Shown: positions 3,086 through 35,473 of the stretch, piece after piece | Numbering within the stretch: the stretch's first letter is position 1 | Layout: the number at the start of each line of letters is the position of its first letter | Assembly: GCF_003790525.1 (NCBI RefSeq) | Contig: NZ_CP033635.1 | Strand: one strand, 5' to 3' | From: Escherichia coli | GTDB lineage: Bacteria; Pseudomonadota; Gammaproteobacteria; Enterobacterales; Enterobacteriaceae | Length of the DNA: 64,000 nucleotides | The notes under the pieces: generated by a model | Told to the model about the DNA's origin: nothing | Seen by the model: the letters and a program-made list of their open reading frames with translations, nothing else | Database searches by the model: none | Program-made: the position numbers and the translations under genes

Positions 3086-3285
3086 GAACTGCTCACTGTG
3101 TTAATTCGTGAACTGACCTGGGGGGAATGCGTGGTACCCTGCTGTACGGACTAATCGGAACCTGTCGGTTGAACGGTATCGATCCGGAAGCGTATCTGCG
3201 CCATATCCTGAACGTTCTACCGGAATGGCCTTCCTGCATGGTTGATGAACTCCTGCCATGGAATATGGTGCTCCCATTGGGGTAA
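3086..3285 (+). mobile_element. IS66-family transposase 3' remnant
   Basis: Translation ...GTLLYGLIGTCRLNGIDPEAYLRHILNVLPEWPSCMVDELLPWNMVLPLG* matches the conserved C-terminal end of IS66-family transposases; no intact upstream ORF. Confidence 0.6.
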
Positions 3286-3503: not shown

Positions 3504-4418
3504 ATGCACTCAATAAAAAAAGTAACCATGCTCCTGGGGTGCCTCGCCCTCACCTGCTCGATAGCATTTCAGGCGAGTGCAACTGAAAAATTCAAGGTCA
3601 TTACAACATTTACCATCATCGCAGATATGGCCAAAAACGTGGCTGGAGATGCTGCAGAAGTCTCATCCATAACCAGGCCCGGTGCAGAAATTCATGAGTA
3701 TCAGCCTACCCCTGGCGATATTAAACGTGCGCAGGGGGCACAACTGATTCTCGCCAACGGTATGAATCTGGAATTGTGGTTCCAGCGCTTTTACCAGCAT
3801 CTCAGTGGGGTTCCAGAAGTGATTGTCTCTTCGGGTGTGACGCCAGTAGGGATCACCGAAGGCCCCTACGAGGGAAAACCTAACCCTCATGCCTGGATGT
3901 CGCCAGATAATGCTTTGATTTACGTCGATAATATTCGTGATGCGTTGATAAAATACGATCCGGCAAATGCAAAAACATACCAACGTAATGCCGATACTTA
4001 TAAAGCCAAGATTACCCAAACCCTTGCCCCCCTGCGTAAGCAGATTGCTGAACTCCCTGAGAATAAAAGATGGATGGTCACCAGTGAAGGGGCTTTTTCT
4101 TATCTCGCACGCGATTTGGGGCTAAAAGAGCTTTATCTGTGGCCGATAAATGCCGATCAACAAGGAACACCCCAGCAGGTACGTAAAGTGGTTGATATAG
4201 TGAAGAAAAATAATATCCCAGCGGTATTTAGTGAGAGTACGGTTTCCGATAAACCAGCGCGTCAGGTTGCGCGTGAAACCGGCGCACACTACGGCGGTGT
4301 GCTCTATGTCGATTCCCTGAGCACAGAAAACGGCCCGGTACCTACGTATATCGACCTTCTGAAGGTTACTACCAGTACGCTGGTGCAGGGAATTAAAGCC
4401 GGGAAAAGGGAGAAGTAA
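3504..4418 (+). CDS. sitA: SitA, periplasmic Mn/Fe-binding protein of the SitABCD ABC transporter
   Basis: 304-aa ORF with signal peptide and metal-binding SBP cluster-9 features; matches SitA from memory. Confidence 0.85.
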   Translation: MHSIKKVTMLLGCLALTCSIAFQASATEKFKVITTFTIIADMAKNVAGDAAEVSSITRPGAEIHEYQPTPGDIKRAQGAQLILANGMNLELWFQRFYQHLSGVPEVIVSSGVTPVGITEGPYEGKPNPHAWMSPDNALIYVDNIRDALIKYDPANAKTYQRNADTYKAKITQTLAPLRKQIAELPENKRWMVTSEGAFSYLARDLGLKELYLWPINADQQGTPQQVRKVVDIVKKNNIPAVFSESTVSDKPARQVARETGAHYGGVLYVDSLSTENGPVPTYIDLLKVTTSTLVQGIKAGKREK

Positions 4419-5694: not shown

Positions 5695-6684
5695 TCAGTG
5701 GCTGATTTTTTTCAGCTGTTCTTCACTCAATCCCGTGATTTTCATGATGGTCTGAAGCCCCATTCCTTCAGCCAACATATTACGCGCCGTTTCCAGTTTG
5801 CCTTCCAGTTGTCCTTCGAGTCGCCCTTCGGCACGGCCTTCCATTCTGCCTTCCATTCTGCCTTCTAGCTTACCGCGCTCCATACCCTGGGCAATACCGC
5901 GCTCAAATCCCTTGACTTCCCCTTCCTGCTTCAGTTGTTCAGCCAGTGTCATTATGTTGCCCTCATGCTGTGGCAGCCGCTCCGCCAGCGTCTGCAAAAA
6001 CCTTACCGTCACATGTTCACTGCCGTTCAGCAGATAGTGGAACAGAGCCTTCGCCAGCTCTTCATTCAGTGAAGTCTGTATCAGCTGAACCAGCCTGTCC
6101 ATCTGCAGCATGATGTCGCGGCTGCGGCTGTGTTTCATCAGCAGCGTCAGTGCCCCCATTCGGCGGTGTTGCATTATCTCATCGTCATCCAGTACCGTCA
6201 CGTCCACCAGGTGGAACGGTCTGGTGTAGATTTTAGCAGCAAGTTCCGGATTTCTGAAACACTCCAGCCAGTTCATGCTGTACGGGTACGGGCTCCGCTC
6301 ACCGTGGTAGAATAACAGCGGGATCACCAGCGGCAGCTCATGGTGCTGTTCAAAGTGACGCTGCATCGCCGCCACCGCATATCTGAGCATCCTGAACGCC
6401 ATAAACGCGTTTTCCGTACTCTGGTGTTCCGCGAGGCAATAAATATACCCCTCCTCACCGCTGACGGTCTTCATGCTGAACAGCGCATCGCACGCATACT
6501 GTTTCAGATCCTGGTCCACAAAGGTACAGGGCTCCAGCCGCAGCGTCGACAGATCACACAACTGCCGGTATTCCGCCGGAAGATGCAGTTCAACAAAATC
6601 ACGGGCCACCTCTGCTGAGGCCATAAACGCCCTGAAGGCGGCATCATGCGGCGTGGGCGTATTTTTCTCTTTCCTGCTGCTCAC
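5695..6684 (-). CDS. Rpn-family recombination-promoting nuclease (YhgA-like putative transposase)
   Basis: 329-aa ORF with PDDEXK-like N-terminal region and the characteristic C-terminal EGRxEGR repeat tail of RpnA-E paralogs. Confidence 0.8.
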   Translation of the reverse strand: MSSRKEKNTPTPHDAAFRAFMASAEVARDFVELHLPAEYRQLCDLSTLRLEPCTFVDQDLKQYACDALFSMKTVSGEEGYIYCLAEHQSTENAFMAFRMLRYAVAAMQRHFEQHHELPLVIPLLFYHGERSPYPYSMNWLECFRNPELAAKIYTRPFHLVDVTVLDDDEIMQHRRMGALTLLMKHSRSRDIMLQMDRLVQLIQTSLNEELAKALFHYLLNGSEHVTVRFLQTLAERLPQHEGNIMTLAEQLKQEGEVKGFERGIAQGMERGKLEGRMEGRMEGRAEGRLEGQLEGKLETARNMLAEGMGLQTIMKITGLSEEQLKKISH

Positions 6685-6918: not shown

Positions 6919-7284
6919 ATGATTGATGTCTTAGGGCCGGAGAAACGCAGACGGCGTACCACACAGGAAAAGATCGCAATTGTTCAGCAGAGTTTTGAAC
7001 CGGGAATGACGGTCTCCCTTGTAGCCCGGCAACACGGTGTGGCAGCCAGCCAGCTATTTCTCTGGCGCAAGCAATACCAGGAGGGAAGTCTTACTGCTGT
7101 GGCCGCAGGAGAACAGGTCGTTCCTGCCTCTGAACTTGCTGCTGCCATGAAGCAGATTAAAGAACTCCAGCGCCTGCTCGGCAAAAAAACGATGGAAAAT
7201 GAACTCCTCAAAGAAGCCGTTGAATATGGACGGGCAAAAAAGTGGATAGCGCACGCGCCCTTATTGCCCGGGGATGGGGAGTAA
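6919..7284 (+). CDS. insC: IS2 transposase OrfA (InsC)
   Basis: [56 protein letters not shown]... is the IS2 OrfA sequence. Confidence 0.9.
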
Positions 7285-8147
7285 GCTTAGTCAGCCGTTG
7301 TCTCCGGGTGTCGCGTGCGCAGTTGCACGTCATTCTCAGACGAACCGATGACTGGATGGATGGCCGCCGCAGTCGTCACACTGATGATACGGATGTGCTT
7401 CTCCGTATACACCATGTTATCGGAGAGCTGCCCACGTATGGTTATCGTCGGGTATGGGCGCTGCTTCGCAGACAGGCAGAACTTGATGGTATGCCTGCGA
7501 TCAATGCCAAACGTGTTTACCGGATCATGCGCCAGAATGCGCTGTTGCTTGAGCGAAAACCTGCTGTACCGCCATCGAAACGGGCACATACAGGCAGAGT
7601 GGCTGTGAAAGAAAGTAATCAGCGATGGTGCTCTGACGGGTTCGAGTTCCGCTGTGATAACGGAGAAAAACTGCGAGTCACGTTCGCGCTGGACTGCTGT
7701 GACCGTGAGGCACTGCACTGGGCGGTCACTACGGGCGGCTTCAACAGTGAAACAGTACAGGACGTCATGCCAGGAGCGGTGGAACGCCGCTTCGGCAACG
7801 ATCTTCCGGCGTCTCCAGTAGAGTGGCTGACGGATAATGGTTCATGCTACCGGGCTAATGAAACACGGCAGTTTGCCCGGATGTTGGGGCTTGAACCGAA
7901 GAGCACGGCGGTGCGGAGTCCGGAGAGTAACGGCATAGCAGAGAGCTTCGTGAAAACGATAAAGCGTGACTACATCAGTATCATGCCTAAACCAGACGGG
8001 TTAACGGCAGCAAAGAACCTTGCAGAGGCGTTCGAGCATTATAACGAATGGCATCCGCATAGTGCACTGGGTTATCGCTCGCCACGGGAATATCTGCGGC
8101 AGCAGGCCAGTAATGGGTTAAGTGATAACAGGTGTCTGGAAATATAG
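7242..8147 (+). CDS. insD: IS2 transposase OrfB (InsD)
   Basis: 301-aa ORF with integrase-core catalytic region, overlapping orfA in the -1 frame as in IS3-family elements. Confidence 0.9.
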
Positions 8148-8473: not shown

Positions 8474-9211
8474 TCATGTACAGCGCTGTACCGGGCAATG
8501 GGTAATACCGGTCACAACCGGTAACCCCAGAGACAATGCAACTGTTTTTAACGCAATATACTGGCCGGATGTATCACCCCGGGCAGCCTGAAAACACCTT
8601 TCCACCCGGCATTGTCCGTCAGCACTTATCACCCGCCATGTCTGTTGCAATAAATCCACCCGTTGCGAACATTCTTCATCAACCGTGGCACTGACCCGTG
8701 GATGGCAAATGCTCGTCTGGCTGAGCAGCAACAGGCATCGCATTGTTGCTCCTCCATGTTGTTCCCGCAACCAGCGTAATACCACCGGTGGTGCTGGACT
8801 GGCCGTGTGATTACGTTCAGTAATACGCTCGTGCACCTGTCGGTAAAAGGAAGTACAGAATGCATGAATCTGTTGTCCGTTGATGTTTCCTTCTGCCGAA
8901 TGGAGTGTGAAGTGGACGGCCAGCAGACGCGGCCAGTGATCCACCGCCTGCTGAATAAAACGCCGGATTTCCACCGGCTCTGAAAGTACGGTTTCGGTTA
9001 TTTGCACGATTTGATCCCCTTGAATGTTGCTGAACCGGTGTCGGTACGCAGGAAAGCACGCCGAGACCGGTACGATGCCTGTTACAGCGAAGAACGAGGA
9101 ATGACAGACGGGGGCAGCAGGTCGCCAGCACCAGGGACAGGGCTGATTTCCACAATACCAACGCTGGTATTTTGCACATTGCCAGCGTACCGGCATTACA
9201 ACACGTTTCAT
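8474..9211 (-). CDS. YagK/YfjJ-like (inovirus Gp2-like) protein, third tandem copy; possibly degenerate
   Basis: Central region (RLLAVHFTLH...NGQQIHAFCTSFYRQV...) parallels the two upstream paralogs; an internal Met at 9211 would overlap the alpA-like stop (ATGA). The N-terminal region is Cys/Trp-rich and atypical, so a frameshifted pseudogene is possible. Confidence 0.35.
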   Translation of the reverse strand: MKRVVMPVRWQCAKYQRWYCGNQPCPWCWRPAAPVCHSSFFAVTGIVPVSACFPAYRHRFSNIQGDQIVQITETVLSEPVEIRRFIQQAVDHWPRLLAVHFTLHSAEGNINGQQIHAFCTSFYRQVHERITERNHTASPAPPVVLRWLREQHGGATMRCLLLLSQTSICHPRVSATVDEECSQRVDLLQQTWRVISADGQCRVERCFQAARGDTSGQYIALKTVALSLGLPVVTGITHCPVQRCT

Positions 9212-9444
9212 GCTGCTGCCCCTCGTGATGCCTCGATTCGTTGCTGCATCCACTGCTCCACTTCACTTTTGTACCAGCGGCTGCTGCGCCCCAGTTTGAT
9301 GGGTTTAGGGAAATGGCCTTCACTGATCAGCTTGTAAAACCATTTGTCGGTCATACCAGTGAAGCTGGTGATGTAGTTCATGTCGATCAGGGGATCGTCG
9401 GCACGCAGCAATACGCTGTCGTGACCTGTCATTGAGGTCAACAT
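9208..9444 (-). CDS. AlpA-family prophage regulatory protein
   Basis: Contains ...FTGMTDKWFYKLISEGHFPKPIKLGRSSRWYKSEVEQWMQQRIEASRG, the typical AlpA-like helix-turn-helix of integrative islands. The true start is probably the internal Met at 9381. Confidence 0.7.
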   Translation of the reverse strand: MLTSMTGHDSVLLRADDPLIDMNYITSFTGMTDKWFYKLISEGHFPKPIKLGRSSRWYKSEVEQWMQQRIEASRGAAA

Positions 9445-17960: not shown

Positions 17961-18010
17961 CCCGTCATTGTTAAAACCATTCTTAACCGATTATCAGTGA
18001 GGACTTTATC

Positions 18011-18388
18011 ATGTCAGACACACTCACCGGGACAACGCATCCCGACGACAACAGCGACCGCCCCTGGTGGGGGCTGCCCTGCACCGTGACGCCCTGTTTC
18101 GGTGCCCGTCTGGTGCAGGAGGGTAACCGCCTGCATTACCTTGCAGACCGCGCCGGCATCAGAGGCCGGTTCAGCGACGCAGATGCGTACCACCCGGACC
18201 AGGCCTTTCCGCTGCTGATGAAACAGCTGGAACTCATGCTCACCAGTGGTGAACTCAGTCCCCGCCATCAGCATACCGTCACACTGTATGCGAAAGGGCT
18301 GACCTGCGAAGCCGACACCCTCGGCAGTTGTGGTTACGTGTATATCGCCATTTATCCGACACCGGCAACACCCGGAACCACCGCATAA
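18011..18388 (+). CDS. cbeA: CbeA/YeeU-family type IV antitoxin
   Basis: [52 protein letters not shown]... is near-identical to YeeU/CbeA as recalled. Confidence 0.85.
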
Positions 18389-18434
18389 CCCCGGACAGCA
18401 CTTCTTTATCACCACCTGTTACAGAGTACTTAAG

Positions 18435-18809
18435 ATGAAAACATTCCCCGACACACATGTACGGGCAACATCGCGCTGCCCGTCTCCGGTTGAAATCTGG
18501 CAGACACTGCTCACCCGGTTGCTGGACCAGCACTACGGCCTCACGCTGAATGACACACCGTTCGCCGATGAACGTGTGATTGAACAGCATATTGAGGCAG
18601 GTATTTCACTGTGTGATGCGGTGAACTTTCTCGTGGAAAAATACGCACTGGTGCGTACCGACCAGCCGGGATTCAGTGCCTGCACCCGCTCTCAGTTAAT
18701 CAACAGCATTGATATCCTCCGGGCCCGCCGGGCAACCGGCCTGATGACCCGCAGCCACTACCGAATGGTGAGCAACATCACCCTGGGTAAACACTGTGAG
18801 GTGAAATGA
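18435..18809 (+). CDS. cbtA: CbtA/YeeV-family type IV toxin
   Basis: ...[65 protein letters not shown]... matches CbtA/YeeV. Start set at the ATG at 18435 rather than the longer ORF-track start. Confidence 0.85.
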
Positions 18810-19297
18810 TGAAACTGTCCCTGACGCTGGAAGCAGACAGCGTTAACGTCCGGGCACTGAACATGGGGCGCATTGTCGCTGACGTCGATGGTGTTAATCT
18901 CGCTGAACTGATTAACGTGGTCTGCGATAACGGCTGTTCCCTTCGTGTTGTTGATGAATCTGACCGGACCTCAGCAGACTGCATGCCACCATTTACTGCC
19001 CTTACCGGCATACGCTGCAGTACCGCACATATCACGGAACAGGACAATGCCTGGCTGTACTCGCTGTCGCATCAGACGAATGACAACGGCGAATCAGAAT
19101 GGATTCATTTTACAGGCAGCGGATATCTGTTACGTACTGATGCGTGGTCGTACCCGGCTCTGCGGCTTAAACGCCTGGGGCTGTCAAAAACCTTCCGCCG
19201 TCTGGTTGTCACACTTATCCGGCGTTATGGCGTCAGTCTCATTCATCTGGATGCCGGCGCTGAATGTCTGCCGGGTTTACCCACTTTCGACTGGTAA
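18806..19297 (+). CDS. YeeW-like protein (DUF5983)
   Basis: 163-aa ORF overlapping the cbtA stop, in the position occupied by yeeW in CP4-44. Confidence 0.65.
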
Positions 19298-19316
19298 CCG
19301 GGACAAAAGACACCGT

Positions 19317-19514
19317 ATGAAATCATTAACCACAGAAACGGCACCGGATATTCTGATTGCGTGGCTGCAGGACAATATCGACTGCGGCTCCGGCATTATC
19401 TTCGACAACGATGAGGATAAAACGGATTCGGCAGCACTGCTGCCCTGTATCGAACAGGCCAGAGCGGATATCCGCACCCTGCGCCACCTGCAGCTTCAGC
19501 ACCAGAACCGGTGA
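19317..19514 (+). CDS. DUF957 small protein
   Basis: 65-aa ORF MKSLTTETAPDILIAWLQDNIDCGSGIIFDNDEDKTD..., recalled as the DUF957 family of island ends. Confidence 0.55.
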   Translation: MKSLTTETAPDILIAWLQDNIDCGSGIIFDNDEDKTDSAALLPCIEQARADIRTLRHLQLQHQNR

Positions 19515-19609
19515 GTCTCACTCATCATCTCACTCACCACGATTCATTCCCCTGACGCCAGTCCGAATACGGCTGGCGTTTTCATTTATAAACCACAAGG
19601 AAAAATGTA

Positions 19610-20458
19610 ATGTCTGATATCACAATCCCTTATCCGGAAGCGGTCAACGGACATACGGACGTTATCTGCTCCACAGATATCCGGCACGTTGTGACGGTAC
19701 GGAATGAAGCACTGCAACAAACCGAAAGGGTTATCCGGCAACTGGCAGAAATCTCAGCAATGACAGAAAGCATAGGCGGTAAAACGGCGCGGGACTGGGC
19801 CGTGAAACAGGATTTTCGCTGTGGCTGCTGGCTGATGGAAAAACCGGAAACCGCAATGAAAGCCATCACCCGGAACCTTGACCGTGAAATCTGGCGTGAC
19901 CTGATGCAACGCTCCGGGATGCTGAGTCTGATGGATGCACAGGCGCGTGATGAATGGTACCGTTCACAGGAGGACGATAATTTCCCGGAAATCAGCGAAG
20001 CGAATATCCTGAGCACGTCTGAACAACTGCACCGTAACAGGGATGAAATGGCTGAACGGGGCGTCATCAACCTCTTCAGGGGACTGAGCCGGACGCAAAA
20101 CAGCGGGTCACCCTGTAAATTCGGCAGCAAGATTATCCTCAACAACCTGGTGAAATGGGACTGGTGGGGATTTGGTCTGAACCATGGCCCGCAGGCCGGG
20201 CGGCTTGCCGACCTGGAAAGAATGTTGTATCTGTTCAGTGGTAAACCCATACCCGATTACAGGGACAATATCCTCATTCGTCTGGATGAGCACATCCGGT
20301 CCGTTCAGGGTGAAGCGTGTTATGAAGATGAGATGTTCAGCATCAGATACTTCAGGAAAGGCTCTGCGCATATCACGTTTAAACACCCGGAACTGGTGGA
20401 GAAGCTGAATGCTGTTCTGGCGAAACATTATTCGGTAAAGTTCCATTCTTCTGTATAA
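19610..20458 (+). CDS. hypothetical protein, 282 aa (possibly DUF4942-like)
   Basis: Long ORF with a good SD (AAGGAAAA); family assignment from memory is uncertain. Last gene before the core genome. Confidence 0.5.
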   Translation: MSDITIPYPEAVNGHTDVICSTDIRHVVTVRNEALQQTERVIRQLAEISAMTESIGGKTARDWAVKQDFRCGCWLMEKPETAMKAITRNLDREIWRDLMQRSGMLSLMDAQARDEWYRSQEDDNFPEISEANILSTSEQLHRNRDEMAERGVINLFRGLSRTQNSGSPCKFGSKIILNNLVKWDWWGFGLNHGPQAGRLADLERMLYLFSGKPIPDYRDNILIRLDEHIRSVQGEACYEDEMFSIRYFRKGSAHITFKHPELVEKLNAVLAKHYSVKFHSSV

Positions 20459-20661
20459 ACTTACAGATCACGGGTATTGTGTCTCGTCCTGAACAGGGCC
20501 GACAGGTATACTGCATTCGCTGAGCCATTACAGATAATGCCTCAACTGAGTTCAATCTACCTCCATGTACAACAACAATACGATGGGGGCTACATTGGGG
20601 GCTATACTTTCAAGTAAAACTGATATAACCAAGATTAAACAATAAGATAGAGAATTTTCAC

Positions 20662-20716
20662 CATTCCCCTCTGGGGAGAGGATTAGGGTGAGGGGCGCAA
20701 ACCCGCTCCGGGGCCA
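20662..20716 (+). repeat. GC-rich palindromic repeat-like element upstream of glnP
   Basis: CCATTCCCCTCTGGGGAGAGGATTAGGGTGAGGGGCGCAAACCCGCTCCGGGGCC contains nested inverted repeats resembling E. coli intergenic palindromic units. Confidence 0.3.
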
Positions 20717-20765
20717 TTAATTACCCTGAATTTGATTATTTACACCACGGTAACAGGAACAACAT

Positions 20766-21425
20766 ATGCAGTTTGACTGGAGTGCCATCTGGCCAGCCAT
20801 TCCGCTTCTGATTGAAGGTGCCAAAATGACCCTGTGGATCTCGGTCCTCGGTCTGGCTGGCGGCCTGGTGATCGGATTGCTGGCAGGTTTTGCACGCACC
20901 TTCGGTGGTTGGATAGCCAACCACGTCGCGCTGGTCTTTATTGAAGTGATCCGCGGCACACCTATCGTCGTCCAGGTGATGTTTATCTATTTCGCCCTGC
21001 CGATGGCGTTTAACGACTTACGCATCGACCCGTTTACTGCGGCGGTGGTCACCATCATGATCAACTCTGGCGCGTACATTGCGGAAATCACGCGTGGTGC
21101 GGTGCTGTCTATTCACAAAGGTTTTCGTGAAGCAGGACTGGCGCTCGGTCTTTCACGTTGGGAAACCATTCGCTACGTCATTTTACCGCTGGCACTGCGT
21201 CGTATGCTGCCGCCGCTGGGTAACCAGTGGATCATCAGCATTAAAGACACCTCGCTGTTTATTGTTATCGGTGTGGCGGAACTGACCCGTCAGGGGCAAG
21301 AAATTATTGCCGGTAACTTCCGCGCCCTTGAGATCTGGAGCGCCGTGGCGGTGTTCTATCTGATTATTACCCTGGTGCTGAGCTTTATTCTGCGTCGTCT
21401 GGAAAGAAGGATGAAAATCCTGTGA
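20766..21425 (+). CDS. glnP: glutamine ABC transporter permease GlnP
   Basis: 219-aa ORF matching K-12 GlnP ([15 protein letters not shown]...). Confidence 0.95.
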
Positions 21426-22144
21426 TTGAATTTAAAAACGTCTCCAAGCATTTTGGTCCAACCCAGGTGCTGCACAATATCGATTTGAACATTGCTCAGG
21501 GCGAAGTCGTGGTGATTATCGGGCCGTCCGGTTCCGGTAAATCGACCCTGCTGCGCTGCATCAACAAACTGGAAGAAATCACTTCCGGCGATCTGATTGT
21601 CGATGGCCTGAAGGTTAACGATCCGAAAGTTGACGAGCGCCTGATTCGCCAGGAAGCAGGTATGGTGTTCCAGCAGTTTTACCTCTTCCCGCATCTGACG
21701 GCGCTGGAAAACGTCATGTTTGGTCCGCTACGCGTGCGTGGCGCGAACAAAGAAGAGGCGGAAAAACTGGCGCGTGAGCTGCTGGCGAAAGTCGGTCTGG
21801 CAGAACGTGCACATCACTACCCTTCCGAACTTTCTGGTGGTCAACAGCAGCGTGTGGCGATCGCACGCGCGCTGGCGGTGAAGCCGAAAATGATGCTGTT
21901 TGATGAACCGACTTCCGCTCTTGACCCGGAACTGCGCCATGAAGTGCTGAAGGTTATGCAGGATCTGGCTGAAGAAGGGATGACGATGGTGATCGTGACA
22001 CACGAAATCGGTTTTGCCGAGAAAGTAGCTTCGCGCCTGATCTTTATCGACAAAGGCCGGATTGCGGAAGATGGCGATCCGCAGGTGTTGATCAAGAACC
22101 CACCGAGCCAGCGCTTGCAGGAATTTTTGCAGCACGTCTCTTAA
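21422..22144 (+). CDS. glnQ: glutamine ABC transporter ATP-binding protein GlnQ
   Basis: 240-aa ORF with GTG start overlapping the glnP stop; Walker [10 protein letters not shown] and signature LSGGQQQR. Confidence 0.95.
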
Positions 22145-22260
22145 CTTCTCAGCCTCCCTTTCCCCCGAAAGGGAGGCACACCAGATTCCTCTCATTTAAA
22201 ATCGCCCCTCCTCCAGCATCTATACTTATCTTTTTGCTCTGTTTTCTCACTGGAGGAGTC

Positions 22261-24486
22261 ATGCGGTGGATCCTGTTCATCCTCTTCTGCCTGCTGGGCG
22301 CACCTGCCCACGCGGTATCCATACCCGGCGTTACAACCACAACGACAACGGACTCAACGACTGAACCGGCCCCGGAACCGGATATCGAACAAAAAAAAGC
22401 GGCCTATGGCGCACTGGCGGATGTGCTGGATAATGACACCTCGCGTAAAGAGTTGATCGACCAGTTGCGCACCGTCGCCGCGACGCCCCCGGCAGAACCC
22501 GTACCGAAGATCGTGCCGCCGACGCTGGTTGAAGAGCAAACCGTGCTGCAAAAGGTCACCGAAGTCAGCCGCCATTATGGTGAAGCCCTTTCCGCCCGCT
22601 TCGGGCAACTTTATCGCAATATCACCGGCTCCCCGCATAAGCCGTTTAATCCACAAACCTTCAGCAATGCGTTGACCCATTTTTCAATGTTAGCGGTATT
22701 AGTGTTTGTTTTTTACTGGCTGATTCGCCTGTGCGCACTTCCGCTGTATCGCAAAATGGGCCAGTGGGCGCGGCAAAAAAATCGTGAGCGCAGTAACTGG
22801 TTGCAGCTTCCGGCGATGATTATCGGGGCGTTTATTATCGACCTGCTGTTACTGGCACTGACATTGTTTGTCGGCCAGGTATTAAGCGACAACCTGAATG
22901 CGGGCAGTCGCACCATCGCTTTCCAACAAAGTTTGTTTCTCAACGCCTTTGCCCTGATTGAATTTTTCAAAGCCGTACTACGCCTGATTTTTTGCCCAAA
23001 CGTGGCTGAACTGCGCCCGTTCACGATTCATGACGAGACCGCCCGTTACTGGAGCCGTCGCCTGAGCTGGTTAAGCAGCCTGATTGGCTATGGCCTGATT
23101 GTGGCCGTGCCGATTATCTCTAATCAGGTGAATGTACAGATAGGTGCGCTGGCGAACGTCATCATTATGCTGTGCATGACGGTCTGGGCGCTGTACCTGA
23201 TCTTTCGTAATAAAAAAGAGATTACCCAGCATTTGCTCAACTTCGCGGAGCATTCGCTGGCCTTTTTCAGCCTGTTTATCCGCGCCTTTGCGCTGGTGTG
23301 GCACTGGCTGGCAAGCGCCTATTTTATCGTGCTGTTTTTCTTTTCGTTGTTCGATCCGGGCAACAGCCTGAAATTTATGATGGGTGCAACGGTGCGCAGC
23401 CTGGCGATTATTGGTATCGCAGCATTTGTTTCCGGTATGTTTTCCCGCTGGCTGGCGAAAACCATCACCCTCTCGCCACATACTCAGCGTAACTATCCGG
23501 AGCTGCAAAAACGGTTGAATGGCTGGCTGTCGGCGGCGCTGAAAACGGCGCGTATTCTGACAGTCTGCGTGGCGGTAATGCTGCTGTTGAGCGCATGGGG
23601 ATTGTTCGATTTCTGGAACTGGCTGCAAAACGGCGCGGGGCAGAAAACCGTAGATATCCTGATCCGTATCGCACTCATTCTTTTCTTCTCGGCGGTTGGC
23701 TGGACAGTGCTCGCCAGTTTGATCGAAAACCGGCTGGCTTCGGATATTCATGGCCGCCCGCTACCCAGCGCCCGTACGCGTACCCTGCTGACGCTGTTTC
23801 GTAACGCGCTGGCGGTGATTATCAGTACCATCACCATCATGATTGTGTTGTCGGAAATCGGCGTTAATATCGCGCCATTGCTGGCAGGTGCCGGGGCATT
23901 AGGTCTGGCTATCTCGTTTGGTTCGCAAACGCTGGTGAAAGATATTATCACCGGGGTATTTATTCAGTTTGAAAACGGCATGAACACTGGAGATTTGGTG
24001 ACTATCGGGCCGTTGACCGGCACTGTGGAACGGATGTCGATTCGCTCCGTGGGCGTGCGTCAGGATACCGGGGCGTATCACATCATTCCGTGGTCTTCGA
24101 TAACTACCTTTGCTAACTTCGTCCGCGGCATTGGTTCGGTGGTGGCAAATTACGATGTTGATCGCCATGAAGATGCTGATAAAGCCAATCAGGCACTGAA
24201 AGATGCGGTAGCGGAATTAATGGAAAACGAAGAAATTCGCGGGCTGATTATTGGTGAACCGAATTTTGCCGGGATTGTCGGCTTAAGCAATACCGCGTTT
24301 ACACTGCGTGTTTCGTTCACCACGCTGCCACTCAAACAGTGGACGGTCCGCTTTGCCCTCGACAGCCAGGTGAAAAAACATTTCGACCTGGCGGGCGTTC
24401 GCGCGCCAGTGCAGACTTATCAGGTGCTGCCTGCTCCGGGCGCGACCCCGGCTGAACCGTTGCCGCCGGGGGAACCAACGCTTTAA
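22261..24486 (+). CDS. ybiO: mechanosensitive channel YbiO (MscS family)
   Basis: Matches K-12 YbiO starting [18 protein letters not shown]; start moved to the internal Met relative to the ORF track. Confidence 0.9.
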
Positions 24487-34751: not shown

Positions 34752-35033
34752 TTATTGCGCTGGTGGCCATTGCAGGGCGGTATGTAAAACACGCAGTACC
34801 GAGAGCGTATCGCCCTCCACTTGGTAGATCAGCACATAATGCGGCCTGACAACGGCTTCATGTGTACCAGCGACTCGTCCGGCCCGGTACATCTCCGGGC
34901 GTTCACAGGCCTGTTCCGCAATGGCTTCAAATTGATTATCAAGGGCTATTGCCGCTAGCGGATTATCTTTACTGATGTATTCCATGATTTGCTCCCTGTC
35001 AGACAGGGACATTGGCTTCCATTCCAGACGCAT
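34752..35033 (-). CDS. RelE/ParE-family type II toxin
   Basis: 93-aa ORF with the ParE-like pattern (...RPHYVLIYQVEGDTLSVLRVLHTA...). Confidence 0.7.
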   Translation of the reverse strand: MRLEWKPMSLSDREQIMEYISKDNPLAAIALDNQFEAIAEQACERPEMYRAGRVAGTHEAVVRPHYVLIYQVEGDTLSVLRVLHTALQWPPAQ

Positions 35034-35473
35034 TAATCCCCCTTCAGCAAGGCTTTTTTACGGGCAGCAAATAGACTTTTGGCCTCTTCATGAGAGAGCG
35101 CCGGGCGTGGATCGTCAATGGCGGCCTGTACCTGTTCACGAAACCAGGCGTCATACGCGGCAGCTTCATGAGCTCGTTTTAATGCCTCTGCCCTGTCTGG
35201 TCGGGTCGTTTTCTTCTGACCGTCCGGGTCGTAATGAGAGGCGTCGACTTCAAACCGGGCAATACCAACATCTTTCAGGTAGTTGACAACCGTTTCCAGC
35301 CGTTTAAACAAGCGAATTTGCCGACTGCGTTGTGCTGCAAGAGGCCGTTCAGTGTGGCCGTATTTCACGGTCAACGACCAGCCTCCCTGGGTGCCAATAA
35401 CGTGTGCTGCATCCACTACGCCAGATTCAACCAGTTTATGTAAGGTTGAGTGATCGATCGTTTCTGGTGCCAT
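35033..35473 (-). CDS. putative cognate antitoxin (146 aa, family uncertain)
   Basis: Immediately upstream of the ParE-like ORF, overlapping by 1 nt; the C-terminal region is helical and charged as in ParD/RHH-type antitoxins, while the N-terminal half is unrecognised. Confidence 0.5.
   Translation of the reverse strand: MAPETIDHSTLHKLVESGVVDAAHVIGTQGGWSLTVKYGHTERPLAAQRSRQIRLFKRLETVVNYLKDVGIARFEVDASHYDPDGQKKTTRPDRAEALKRAHEAAAYDAWFREQVQAAIDDPRPALSHEEAKSLFAARKKALLKGD

Follow-up and report, generated by a model that had tools for sequence, protein, structure and literature searches.

We find that the interval 20459-20765 of the window (by which we mean the entire 64,000-nucleotide stretch of E. 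coli DNA analyzed here) is very probably the attR of a genomic island placed by a P4-type tyrosine integrase into hairpin 1 of a BoxC repeat, in the spacer between glnH and glnP. In the mechanism that we propose, a P4-type (heterobivalent) tyrosine integrase would insert the island into this spacer, with the first hairpin of a resident BoxC/PIT/TMECO-like repeat serving as attB; strand exchange would take place within TCCCCTCTGGGGAG (20665-20678), leaving the core duplicated at both island ends, and the 9-mers and the conserved block of the arms would act as arm-type integrase sites and accessory-factor sites, on which the excision complex would be assembled.

The island-core boundary and the resident palindrome

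In a BLAST comparison with K-12 and with 5426 complete E. coli genomes, core homology begins at position 20665 of the window, 37 bp past the glnH stop, and the boundary between island and core is 20664/20665. Since core homology starts there, the true breakpoint is inside the interval in which the initial annotation had placed it. Contiguity of the whole interval with the normal glnH-glnP spacer had been set beforehand as the observation that would speak against this placement; in the K-12 alignment only 20665-20765 aligns, as the distal 101 bp of the normal 138-bp spacer. The 206 bp on the island side (20459-20664) are missing from K-12 and from the 5402 genomes whose site is empty, and are found in only 90 of the 5426 genomes, beside differing core genes. 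Overall glnH-glnP is uninterrupted in 5402 of 5421 genomes, and the site is occupied in approximately 0.35%. A sharp boundary between strain-specific and conserved DNA is thus present at attR. The features around it are the following.

19610-20458, plus strand: DUF4942 gene, the last gene of the island, reading toward glnP (ORF of 282 aa; Pfam DUF4942, 4e-59)
20459-20664, plus strand: non-coding right arm (P arm of attR), the region of the open frame in the initial annotation (absent from K-12, no homologue, no coding signature)
20520-20576, plus strand: conserved arm block ..CAACTGAGTTCAAT..ACCTCCATGTACAACAAC, near-invariant across arms that are otherwise 80-90% identical
20584-20592 and 20596-20604, plus strand: two tandem TGGGGGCTA 9-mers, candidate arm-type integrase sites
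20605-20655, plus strand: AT-rich spacer between arm sites and core (23.5% GC), fixed in length and variable in sequence among arms
20656-20664, plus strand: TTTCACCAT, the island-side flank of the core, which takes the place of the left half of BoxC block 1
20665-20678, plus strand: 14-bp core TCCCCTCTGGGGAG, the putative crossover region, stem-loop-stem of BoxC hairpin 1 and direct repeat at attL
20674-20694, plus strand: BoxC/TMECO blocks 2 and 3, GGGAGAGGA TTA GGGTGAGGG, recognized by pattern match; resident core DNA
20683-20729, plus strand: second nested hairpin of the native glnH-glnP spacer, with fold and sequence the same as in K-12
20766-21425, plus strand: glnP, the first core gene (ORF; 98% identical to K-12; annotated glnP in all matches)

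Downstream of the interval glnP is followed by glnQ and ybiO. The island is inserted between glnPQ and glnH with the promoters of the operon, and it cuts glnPQ off from them. No gene is broken by the insertion: it fell between genes, and an intact glnH is retained in strain 23CRST013, in which the junction is 100% identical to that of the window. In that genome glnH lies approximately 40 kb upstream, at the far end of the island, and a tyrosine integrase gene follows it directly. Transcription of glnPQ may then occur by read-through from the island. A consensus scan of 20200-20900 recognized no promoter or terminator site on either strand, and thus provides no support for a promoter at the island end or for a terminator separating DUF4942 from glnP; a scan of 18000-23000 against Rfam at a permissive threshold returned nothing in the interval, its sole match being at chance level and elsewhere.

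The island amounts to at least 20.6 kb, and to approximately 40 kb in the genome with the identical junction. Upstream of the interval is a CP4-like tail consisting of antirestriction, RadC, a YeeU/CbtA toxin-antitoxin pair, DUF5983, DUF957 and DUF4942, and DUF4942 is the terminal gene in all the related islands; it is intact in the window and frameshifted in 23CRST013. Further upstream, an AlpA-family gene (9208-9444, minus strand; Pfam Phage_AlpA, 2e-10) is a candidate excisionase or directionality factor, whose role in excision is suggested by its family. Among the features of the island part of the window (noted at 3504-4418 and 7242-8147) are also a gene for a SitA-like (ZnuA-family) binding protein, a transposase gene of an rve-type IS and, at 5695-6684, an Rpn/YhgA-like gene. 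The window island is of mosaic structure, and no complete genome matches it over its full length (the best match has 87% coverage at 95.9% identity), its right 12 kb being a 98.5% match to CM2; likewise, no complete genome was found with the whole 20.6 kb island part. Separately, between dinG and rhlE (34752-35473, minus strand), the window holds another toxin-antitoxin pair of 93 aa and 146 aa, which in a sibling genome are annotated as RelE/ParE-family and PaaA2-family, respectively.

The palindrome described at 20662-20716 in the initial annotation is real, at about those coordinates, and consists of hairpin 1 (approximately 20661-20681) followed by the second, nested hairpin (approximately 20683-20729). 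Its predicted fold has an energy of −30.6 kcal/mol (z = −1.5) in the window versus −37.6 kcal/mol (z = −2.1) in intact K-12, both computed as ordinary hairpin folding. The sequences TCCCCNNNGGGGAG and GGGNGAGGNNNNGGGNGAGGG occur once each in the 64 kb window, versus 0.01 and 0.00 expected, and TCCCCTCTGGGGAG also occurs once, versus 0.01 expected. The annotation had further suggested that the palindrome is a repeat unit, which is supported: with slight degeneracy it matches the BoxC/PIT/TMECO family, whose consensus is CCCTCNCCC-N3-6-GGGNGAGGG-N3-GGGNGAGGG and of which MG1655 contains 23 strict copies (Holder et al. 2015, PMC4666352). The gln copy is not among the 23 listed because of a single mismatch to the strict consensus (GGGAGAGGA); in two empty gln sites (L001, L017) the three-block motif is matched once any base is allowed at the final position of block 2. 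An assignment to REP/BIME was considered and dropped, as the sequence fits the BoxC consensus. BoxC is both intergenic, as here between glnH and glnP, and multi-copy, with copies verified at frlR/yhfS and zntA/tusA.

What does not hold is the idea that the palindrome was brought by the island. From 20665 onward the interval is the K-12 spacer, and the palindrome, which we read as a slightly degenerate BoxC/PIT/TMECO repeat, is resident DNA of essentially all E. coli; because glnH-glnP is contiguous in all but a few genomes, it is the target of the insertion rather than its cargo. In the window blocks 2 and 3 are intact, and hairpin 1 is weakened because half of block 1 has been swapped for island DNA.

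The non-coding right arm

The stop-free frame reported upstream of glnP also exists. It extends over 53 codons from 20459 to 20617 (52 residues in translation, ending in ...QQQYDGGYIGGYTFK before the stop) and is the frame of the DUF4942 gene running on beyond the stop codon of that gene at 20456-20458. It had been called start-less, which is not the case, as the frame contains a TTG at 20477 and an ATG at 20537; no Shine-Dalgarno-like sequence precedes either of them. When the segment was shuffled, 31% of the shuffles had at least one of the six frames open, and 5.8% had this particular frame open. The check by protein similarity that had been recommended yielded no homologue of the translation among 5.8 billion proteins, and there was no Pfam match. 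We have also counted the variable sites per codon position across six related right arms, which are 80-100% identical and belong to islands that occupy different loci: the counts are 8/8/8 for 20537-20614 and 11/10/9 for 20459-20536, with no bias toward any position. Of the five related arms, four leave the frame open, and in one (G1/2) an internal stop interrupts it.

These observations bear on two ways of reading the segment as coding. In the first, 20459-20617 is the 3' stump of a disrupted gene, a possibility raised in the initial annotation, and the palindrome is a repeat unit arriving alongside, a reading that we find hardly credible: the existence of a 53-codon frame that is open in most of the related arms fits it, but both protein-family similarity and a coding substitution pattern were tested as marks of a gene remnant and neither was found, an arm with an internal stop and the frequency of open frames in shuffles point the same way, the segment is island DNA that sits beside different core genes, and the insertion itself went into an intergenic target, next to an intact glnH and a palindrome that is core DNA. 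It is also highly unlikely that the arm codes for a small protein, of 26 aa from the ATG at 20537 or of 46 aa from the TTG at 20477. The in-frame starts, the openness of the frame in five of six arms and a fairly conserved sequence at the peptide level are what such a protein would lead one to expect; there is, however, no Shine-Dalgarno sequence, no excess of variation at the third position and no homologue called anywhere, the G1/2 arm has its stop, and the tandem 9-mers, where conservation is highest, are found again in the opposite arm outside any such frame. We conclude that 20459-20664 is a non-coding arm of attR and not a gene stump. As to the suggestion that frame and palindrome together mark the breakpoint, the junction is indeed in the interval and the palindrome is a repeat unit, but the frame is no stump and the palindrome was there before the island.

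As a non-coding arm, the segment shows a clear internal organization. The "GGYIGGY" tail of the open frame is simply the translation of the two tandem TGGGGGCTA 9-mers, which are the only copies of this motif in the window (0.36 expected). The pair is kept in all six right arms, save for one T-to-C change in one GABEEC132 copy, and is invariant in five of five left arms, in the same orientation, approximately 17-19 nt upstream of the int ATG; right and left arms have a module of approximately 55 bp in common. Because the integrase has an Arm-DNA-bind_3 domain and the motif is conserved in both arms, we read the 9-mers as candidate arm-type integrase sites, to which the integrase would bind. 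The block at 20520-20576, which has a similar counterpart in the attL arm (GTCAATC..TTCCATGAACATCAAG), probably holds binding sites for the integrase or for accessory proteins. The matches to the IHF consensus that can be seen by eye in the AT-rich spacer are too imperfect to support a claim of IHF sites. The flank TTTCACCAT is identical in the window, GF60, strain 135, PK-F-10122, HCM-27C-1, GPEC1040 and the second 23CRST013 island. In general, it can be seen from the alignments of right and left arms that the TGGGGGCTA pair and the TCCCC-N3-GGGGAG junction are constant (bar the GABEEC132 base), while the flanks vary.

Two further observations concern arms that have been altered. In GABEEC132 (locus L007, 684-2935) an ISEc10 element of the IS21 family interrupts the right arm at a point between the conserved block and DUF4942, and separates the arm sites from the body of the island. 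In many genomes a fragment of approximately 65 nt, 85% identical to the int-side arm, is found, without an integrase, by a 3-hydroxybenzoate/gentisate cluster (L009; L010, 2501-2567); it is probably the decayed end of a related island.

Attachment sites and related islands

The left end of the window island is beyond the window, and its integrase and attL were taken from sibling genomes; because of this, and of the mosaic nature of an island without full-length match, both are inferred from the siblings. The attachment sites read as follows (a slash marks the junctions).

attL, in 23CRST013: ..GGCAGTTCCCTCTCCCCTCTGGGGAG/GATCTATTGATATC.. (also written ..CCCTCTCCCCTCTGGGGAG/GATCTATTG)
attR, in the window: ..TTTCACCAT/TCCCCTCTGGGGAG/AGGATTAGGGTGAGGGG..
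attB, in JNE120442, the closest empty site: ..GGCAGTTCCCTCTCCCCTCTGGGGAGAGGATTAGGGTGAGGGG.. (also written CCCTCTCCCCTCTGGGGAGAGGATTAGGG)

The left part of attL joined to the right part of attR reconstitutes the JNE120442 empty site exactly, with the 14-bp core common to both ends; the direct repeat of the core at attL was confirmed in the siblings 23CRST013, GABEEC132 and strain 135. The 23CRST013 integrase matches the Pfam families Phage_integrase (4.6e-20), Phage_int_M (9e-29) and Arm-DNA-bind_3 (2e-28), and HGFRH and RGTY motifs are visible in its sequence; judged by these predicted domains, it is an enzyme of P4-type heterobivalent architecture. Its identity to any phage integrase in a phage collection is at most 43%. 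A search of metagenome contigs for the predicted attP junction (TTTCACCATTCCCCTCTGGGGAGGATCTATTG) gave 0 matches, which amounts to absence of evidence only. In a collection with one genome per species the attR pattern also gave 0 matches, and the attL pattern 6, all in unrelated phyla and clearly due to chance; this collection provides no evidence of the family outside E. coli.

Near-identical versions of the right arm, which as mentioned above occurs in 90 genomes, come with the same DUF4942 proteins and abut the same position of BoxC-type copies at several loci. Besides the window, they are these.

ycjD-fabI (TMECO 9): strain 135 and PK-F-10122; the two ends in strain 135 recreate TMECO 9 exactly
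ygfF, beside the TMECO 10/11 pair: TUM9803
zntA-tusA (TMECO 16): HCM-27C-1
frlR-yhfS (TMECO 15): GPEC1040
glnH-glnP again: GF60
tkt, against ..GGGGAGAGGGTTAGGGTTAGGGG: second island of 23CRST013 (L032, 1380-1640), with a right arm identical to that of the window

The junction is therefore found at six BoxC-type loci. All the BoxC junctions read TTTCACCAT/TCCCC-NNN-GGGGAG/AGGG.., in a single orientation relative to BoxC. The integrase of strain 135 is identical to the gln one at 391 of 397 residues (98%), and over 223 nt the int-side arm shows 100% identity. A single genome, that of 23CRST013, carries at least two islands of this family (gln and tkt). For the islands of TUM9803 and Br_112_kylling no left end was found within 50 kb, both islands being longer. 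The presence of related islands at five or more other BoxC-type sites, in other E. coli strains, suggests that BoxC repeats may serve as landing pads for mobile islands.

With a query consisting of arm plus BoxC, the arm was found in 31 genomes, in 24 of which the match extends into BoxC blocks 2 and 3, and in 7 of which it ends with the hairpin. These shorter matches come from islands in ulaE, a gene that more diverged islands, with integrases 82-84% identical, occupy as well. The ulaE insertions are at codons 14-18, where the coding sequence reads CTCCCCGCCGGGGAG and forms a look-alike hairpin, and they occur in both orientations (L004, L008, L011, L012, L014, L015). The common requirement thus appears, from the comparison of these targets, to be the hairpin CTCCCC-N3-GGGGAG. 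In PK8276 (L004, 3167-3300) the annotated ulaE starts in the island arm, and the predicted hybrid N-terminus IVQLNQQNEKISPLPAGECW... replaces the first 15 or so native residues.

The loops of these hairpins carry some information on the exchange itself. In the case of ulaE a single base, the central one, distinguishes the attP and attB loops (GCC versus GGC). PKF4 has the loop of the island at attL and the chromosomal loop at attR, as expected if the exchange was conservative and one base of the overlap was mismatched. With the BoxC loop TCT, an island in reverse orientation would face three mismatches, and the islands at BoxC are seen in one orientation only. The single orientation at BoxC and the ulaE pattern fit an overlap of approximately CC-NNN-GG; we infer the cleavage positions, with an overlap that would be 7 bp long, of the form CC-NNN-GG and flanked by inverted core sites. 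In GABEEC132 the loop is GCC both at attL (L013, approximately 1990-2010) and at attR (L007, approximately 3140-3160), and the empty gln sites that we have seen have TAT or TCT. A GCC loop at both ends is not predicted by simple conservative exchange with a TAT or TCT attB, which predicts one loop from each parent; a double GCC of this type would need an unseen GCC variant of attB or repair of a heteroduplex, and we cannot explain it otherwise.

An island could also come to lie at BoxC without site-specific integration, if BoxC, as a putatively triplex-forming and fragile sequence, were a hotspot of breakage, or if short repeats had supported homologous or illegitimate recombination. Variability is in fact raised near TMECO repeats and structure-induced instability has been proposed for them (Holder et al., PMC4666352), and dispersed BoxC copies could support rearrangements between islands. 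This origin is nevertheless very unlikely, because all loci agree in the junction nucleotide, in the 14-bp duplication and in the termini of the island, because there is an integrase gene at the opposite end, and because the ulaE site, which is not a BoxC, has only the hairpin TCCCC-N3-GGGGAG in common with the others. Moreover, 14 bp are too short for RecA-dependent exchange, which counts against recombination. Integration by the P4-type integrase remains the reading that we adopt.

Relation to known systems

With regard to annotation the outcome is an ordinary one: the boundary is fixed, a spurious "gene stump" is removed, and glnPQ is recognized as severed from its promoters. A broader proposition is that BoxC/PIT/TMECO repeats, at approximately 23 copies per E. 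coli genome, are dispersed attachment sites for one family of P4-type integrases that would recognize the hairpin CTCCCC-N3-GGGGAG; we consider the case for and against it evenly balanced. If it is true, the same island could land at many positions, and a near-symmetric loop such as that of ulaE would allow both orientations; the proposition would also explain the strain-to-strain variability beside BoxC, and would provide a natural multi-site integrase system. To our knowledge, BoxC/PIT/TMECO has been without a known function for 30 years, and an orphan repeat family would in this way be tied to the biology of mobile elements, with a concrete cause offered for the variability nearby.

The palindrome of the window appears to be a copy, with one mismatch at the gln site, of the family described by Holder et al. 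(PMC4666352), and the fabI, frlR and tusA targets are TMECO 9, 15 and 16 of their Table 1. These authors observed higher variability beside TMECO repeats, for which they proposed structure-induced instability, and saw no integrases or transposases near them, whereas here integrase-bearing islands adjoin the repeats in a minority of strains.

The two gene loci are known from islands that carry papGII. According to the accessible text of Biggel et al. (2020, PMC7686366), the six integration sites of papGII PAIs include "gln: glnP-glnH" and "ula: ulaE-ulaD", every site having an integrase specific for it, and the corresponding text of Royer et al. (2021, PMC8097792) mentions insertion between glnH and glnP. 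The arms of GABEEC132 and SCU-387 type belong to this papGII gln/ula group. Our islands thus share with those of the two papers (PMC7686366, PMC8097792) the glnH-glnP and ulaD-ulaE loci and integrases specific for the insertion site; as far as the accessible portions of the papers extend, they differ in that the sites are given there at the level of genes, with no description of the att core, the arm repeats, the BoxC target or the other BoxC copies. A literature search for any link of BoxC to an integrase or attB, or of fabI/ycjD to islands, returned nothing relevant, although such a search cannot prove novelty. The gln and ula loci are already published as island sites, and the BoxC hairpin was not found described as a target in the literature searched; we regard its use as a multi-copy integrase target as modestly novel. 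The result is of some consequence for the tracking of virulence islands, as papGII islands use gln and ula, and typing based on these sites would miss copies elsewhere.

In E. coli, tRNA genes are the expected sites of integrase-borne islands. P4-type islands (CP4-57 at ssrA, PAI I-IV of strain 536, the Yersinia HPI) have in common with those described here the integrase domains, an AlpA-family gene, a short direct repeat at the ends, and the same cargo backbone of GTPase, DUF932, antirestriction, RadC, YeeU/CbtA, DUF5983, DUF957 and DUF4942. They target tRNA or tmRNA genes, whereas here the target is, instead of a tRNA gene's 3' end, the first stem-loop of the dispersed intergenic BoxC, with many potential attB sites per genome, and the core is only 14 bp long and is itself an inverted repeat. 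A single family using the hairpin of a dispersed repeat would have many alternative sites, of which six BoxC-type loci and ulaE have been seen. A more distant likeness is to Int and attP of phage lambda, where there are also an arm-binding N-terminal and a catalytic domain, arm motifs on both sides of a core with inverted sites, and a short overlap; the sequences are unrelated, and arm-site binding, IHF sites and the length of the overlap are at most putative here. Finally, IS1397, ISKpn1 and IS621 target REP/BIME palindromes, and are small IS elements with transposases of DDE or IS110 type. Like these, the islands at BoxC are mobile elements that use dispersed extragenic palindromes; unlike these, they are moved by a tyrosine integrase and are 40-100 kb in size.
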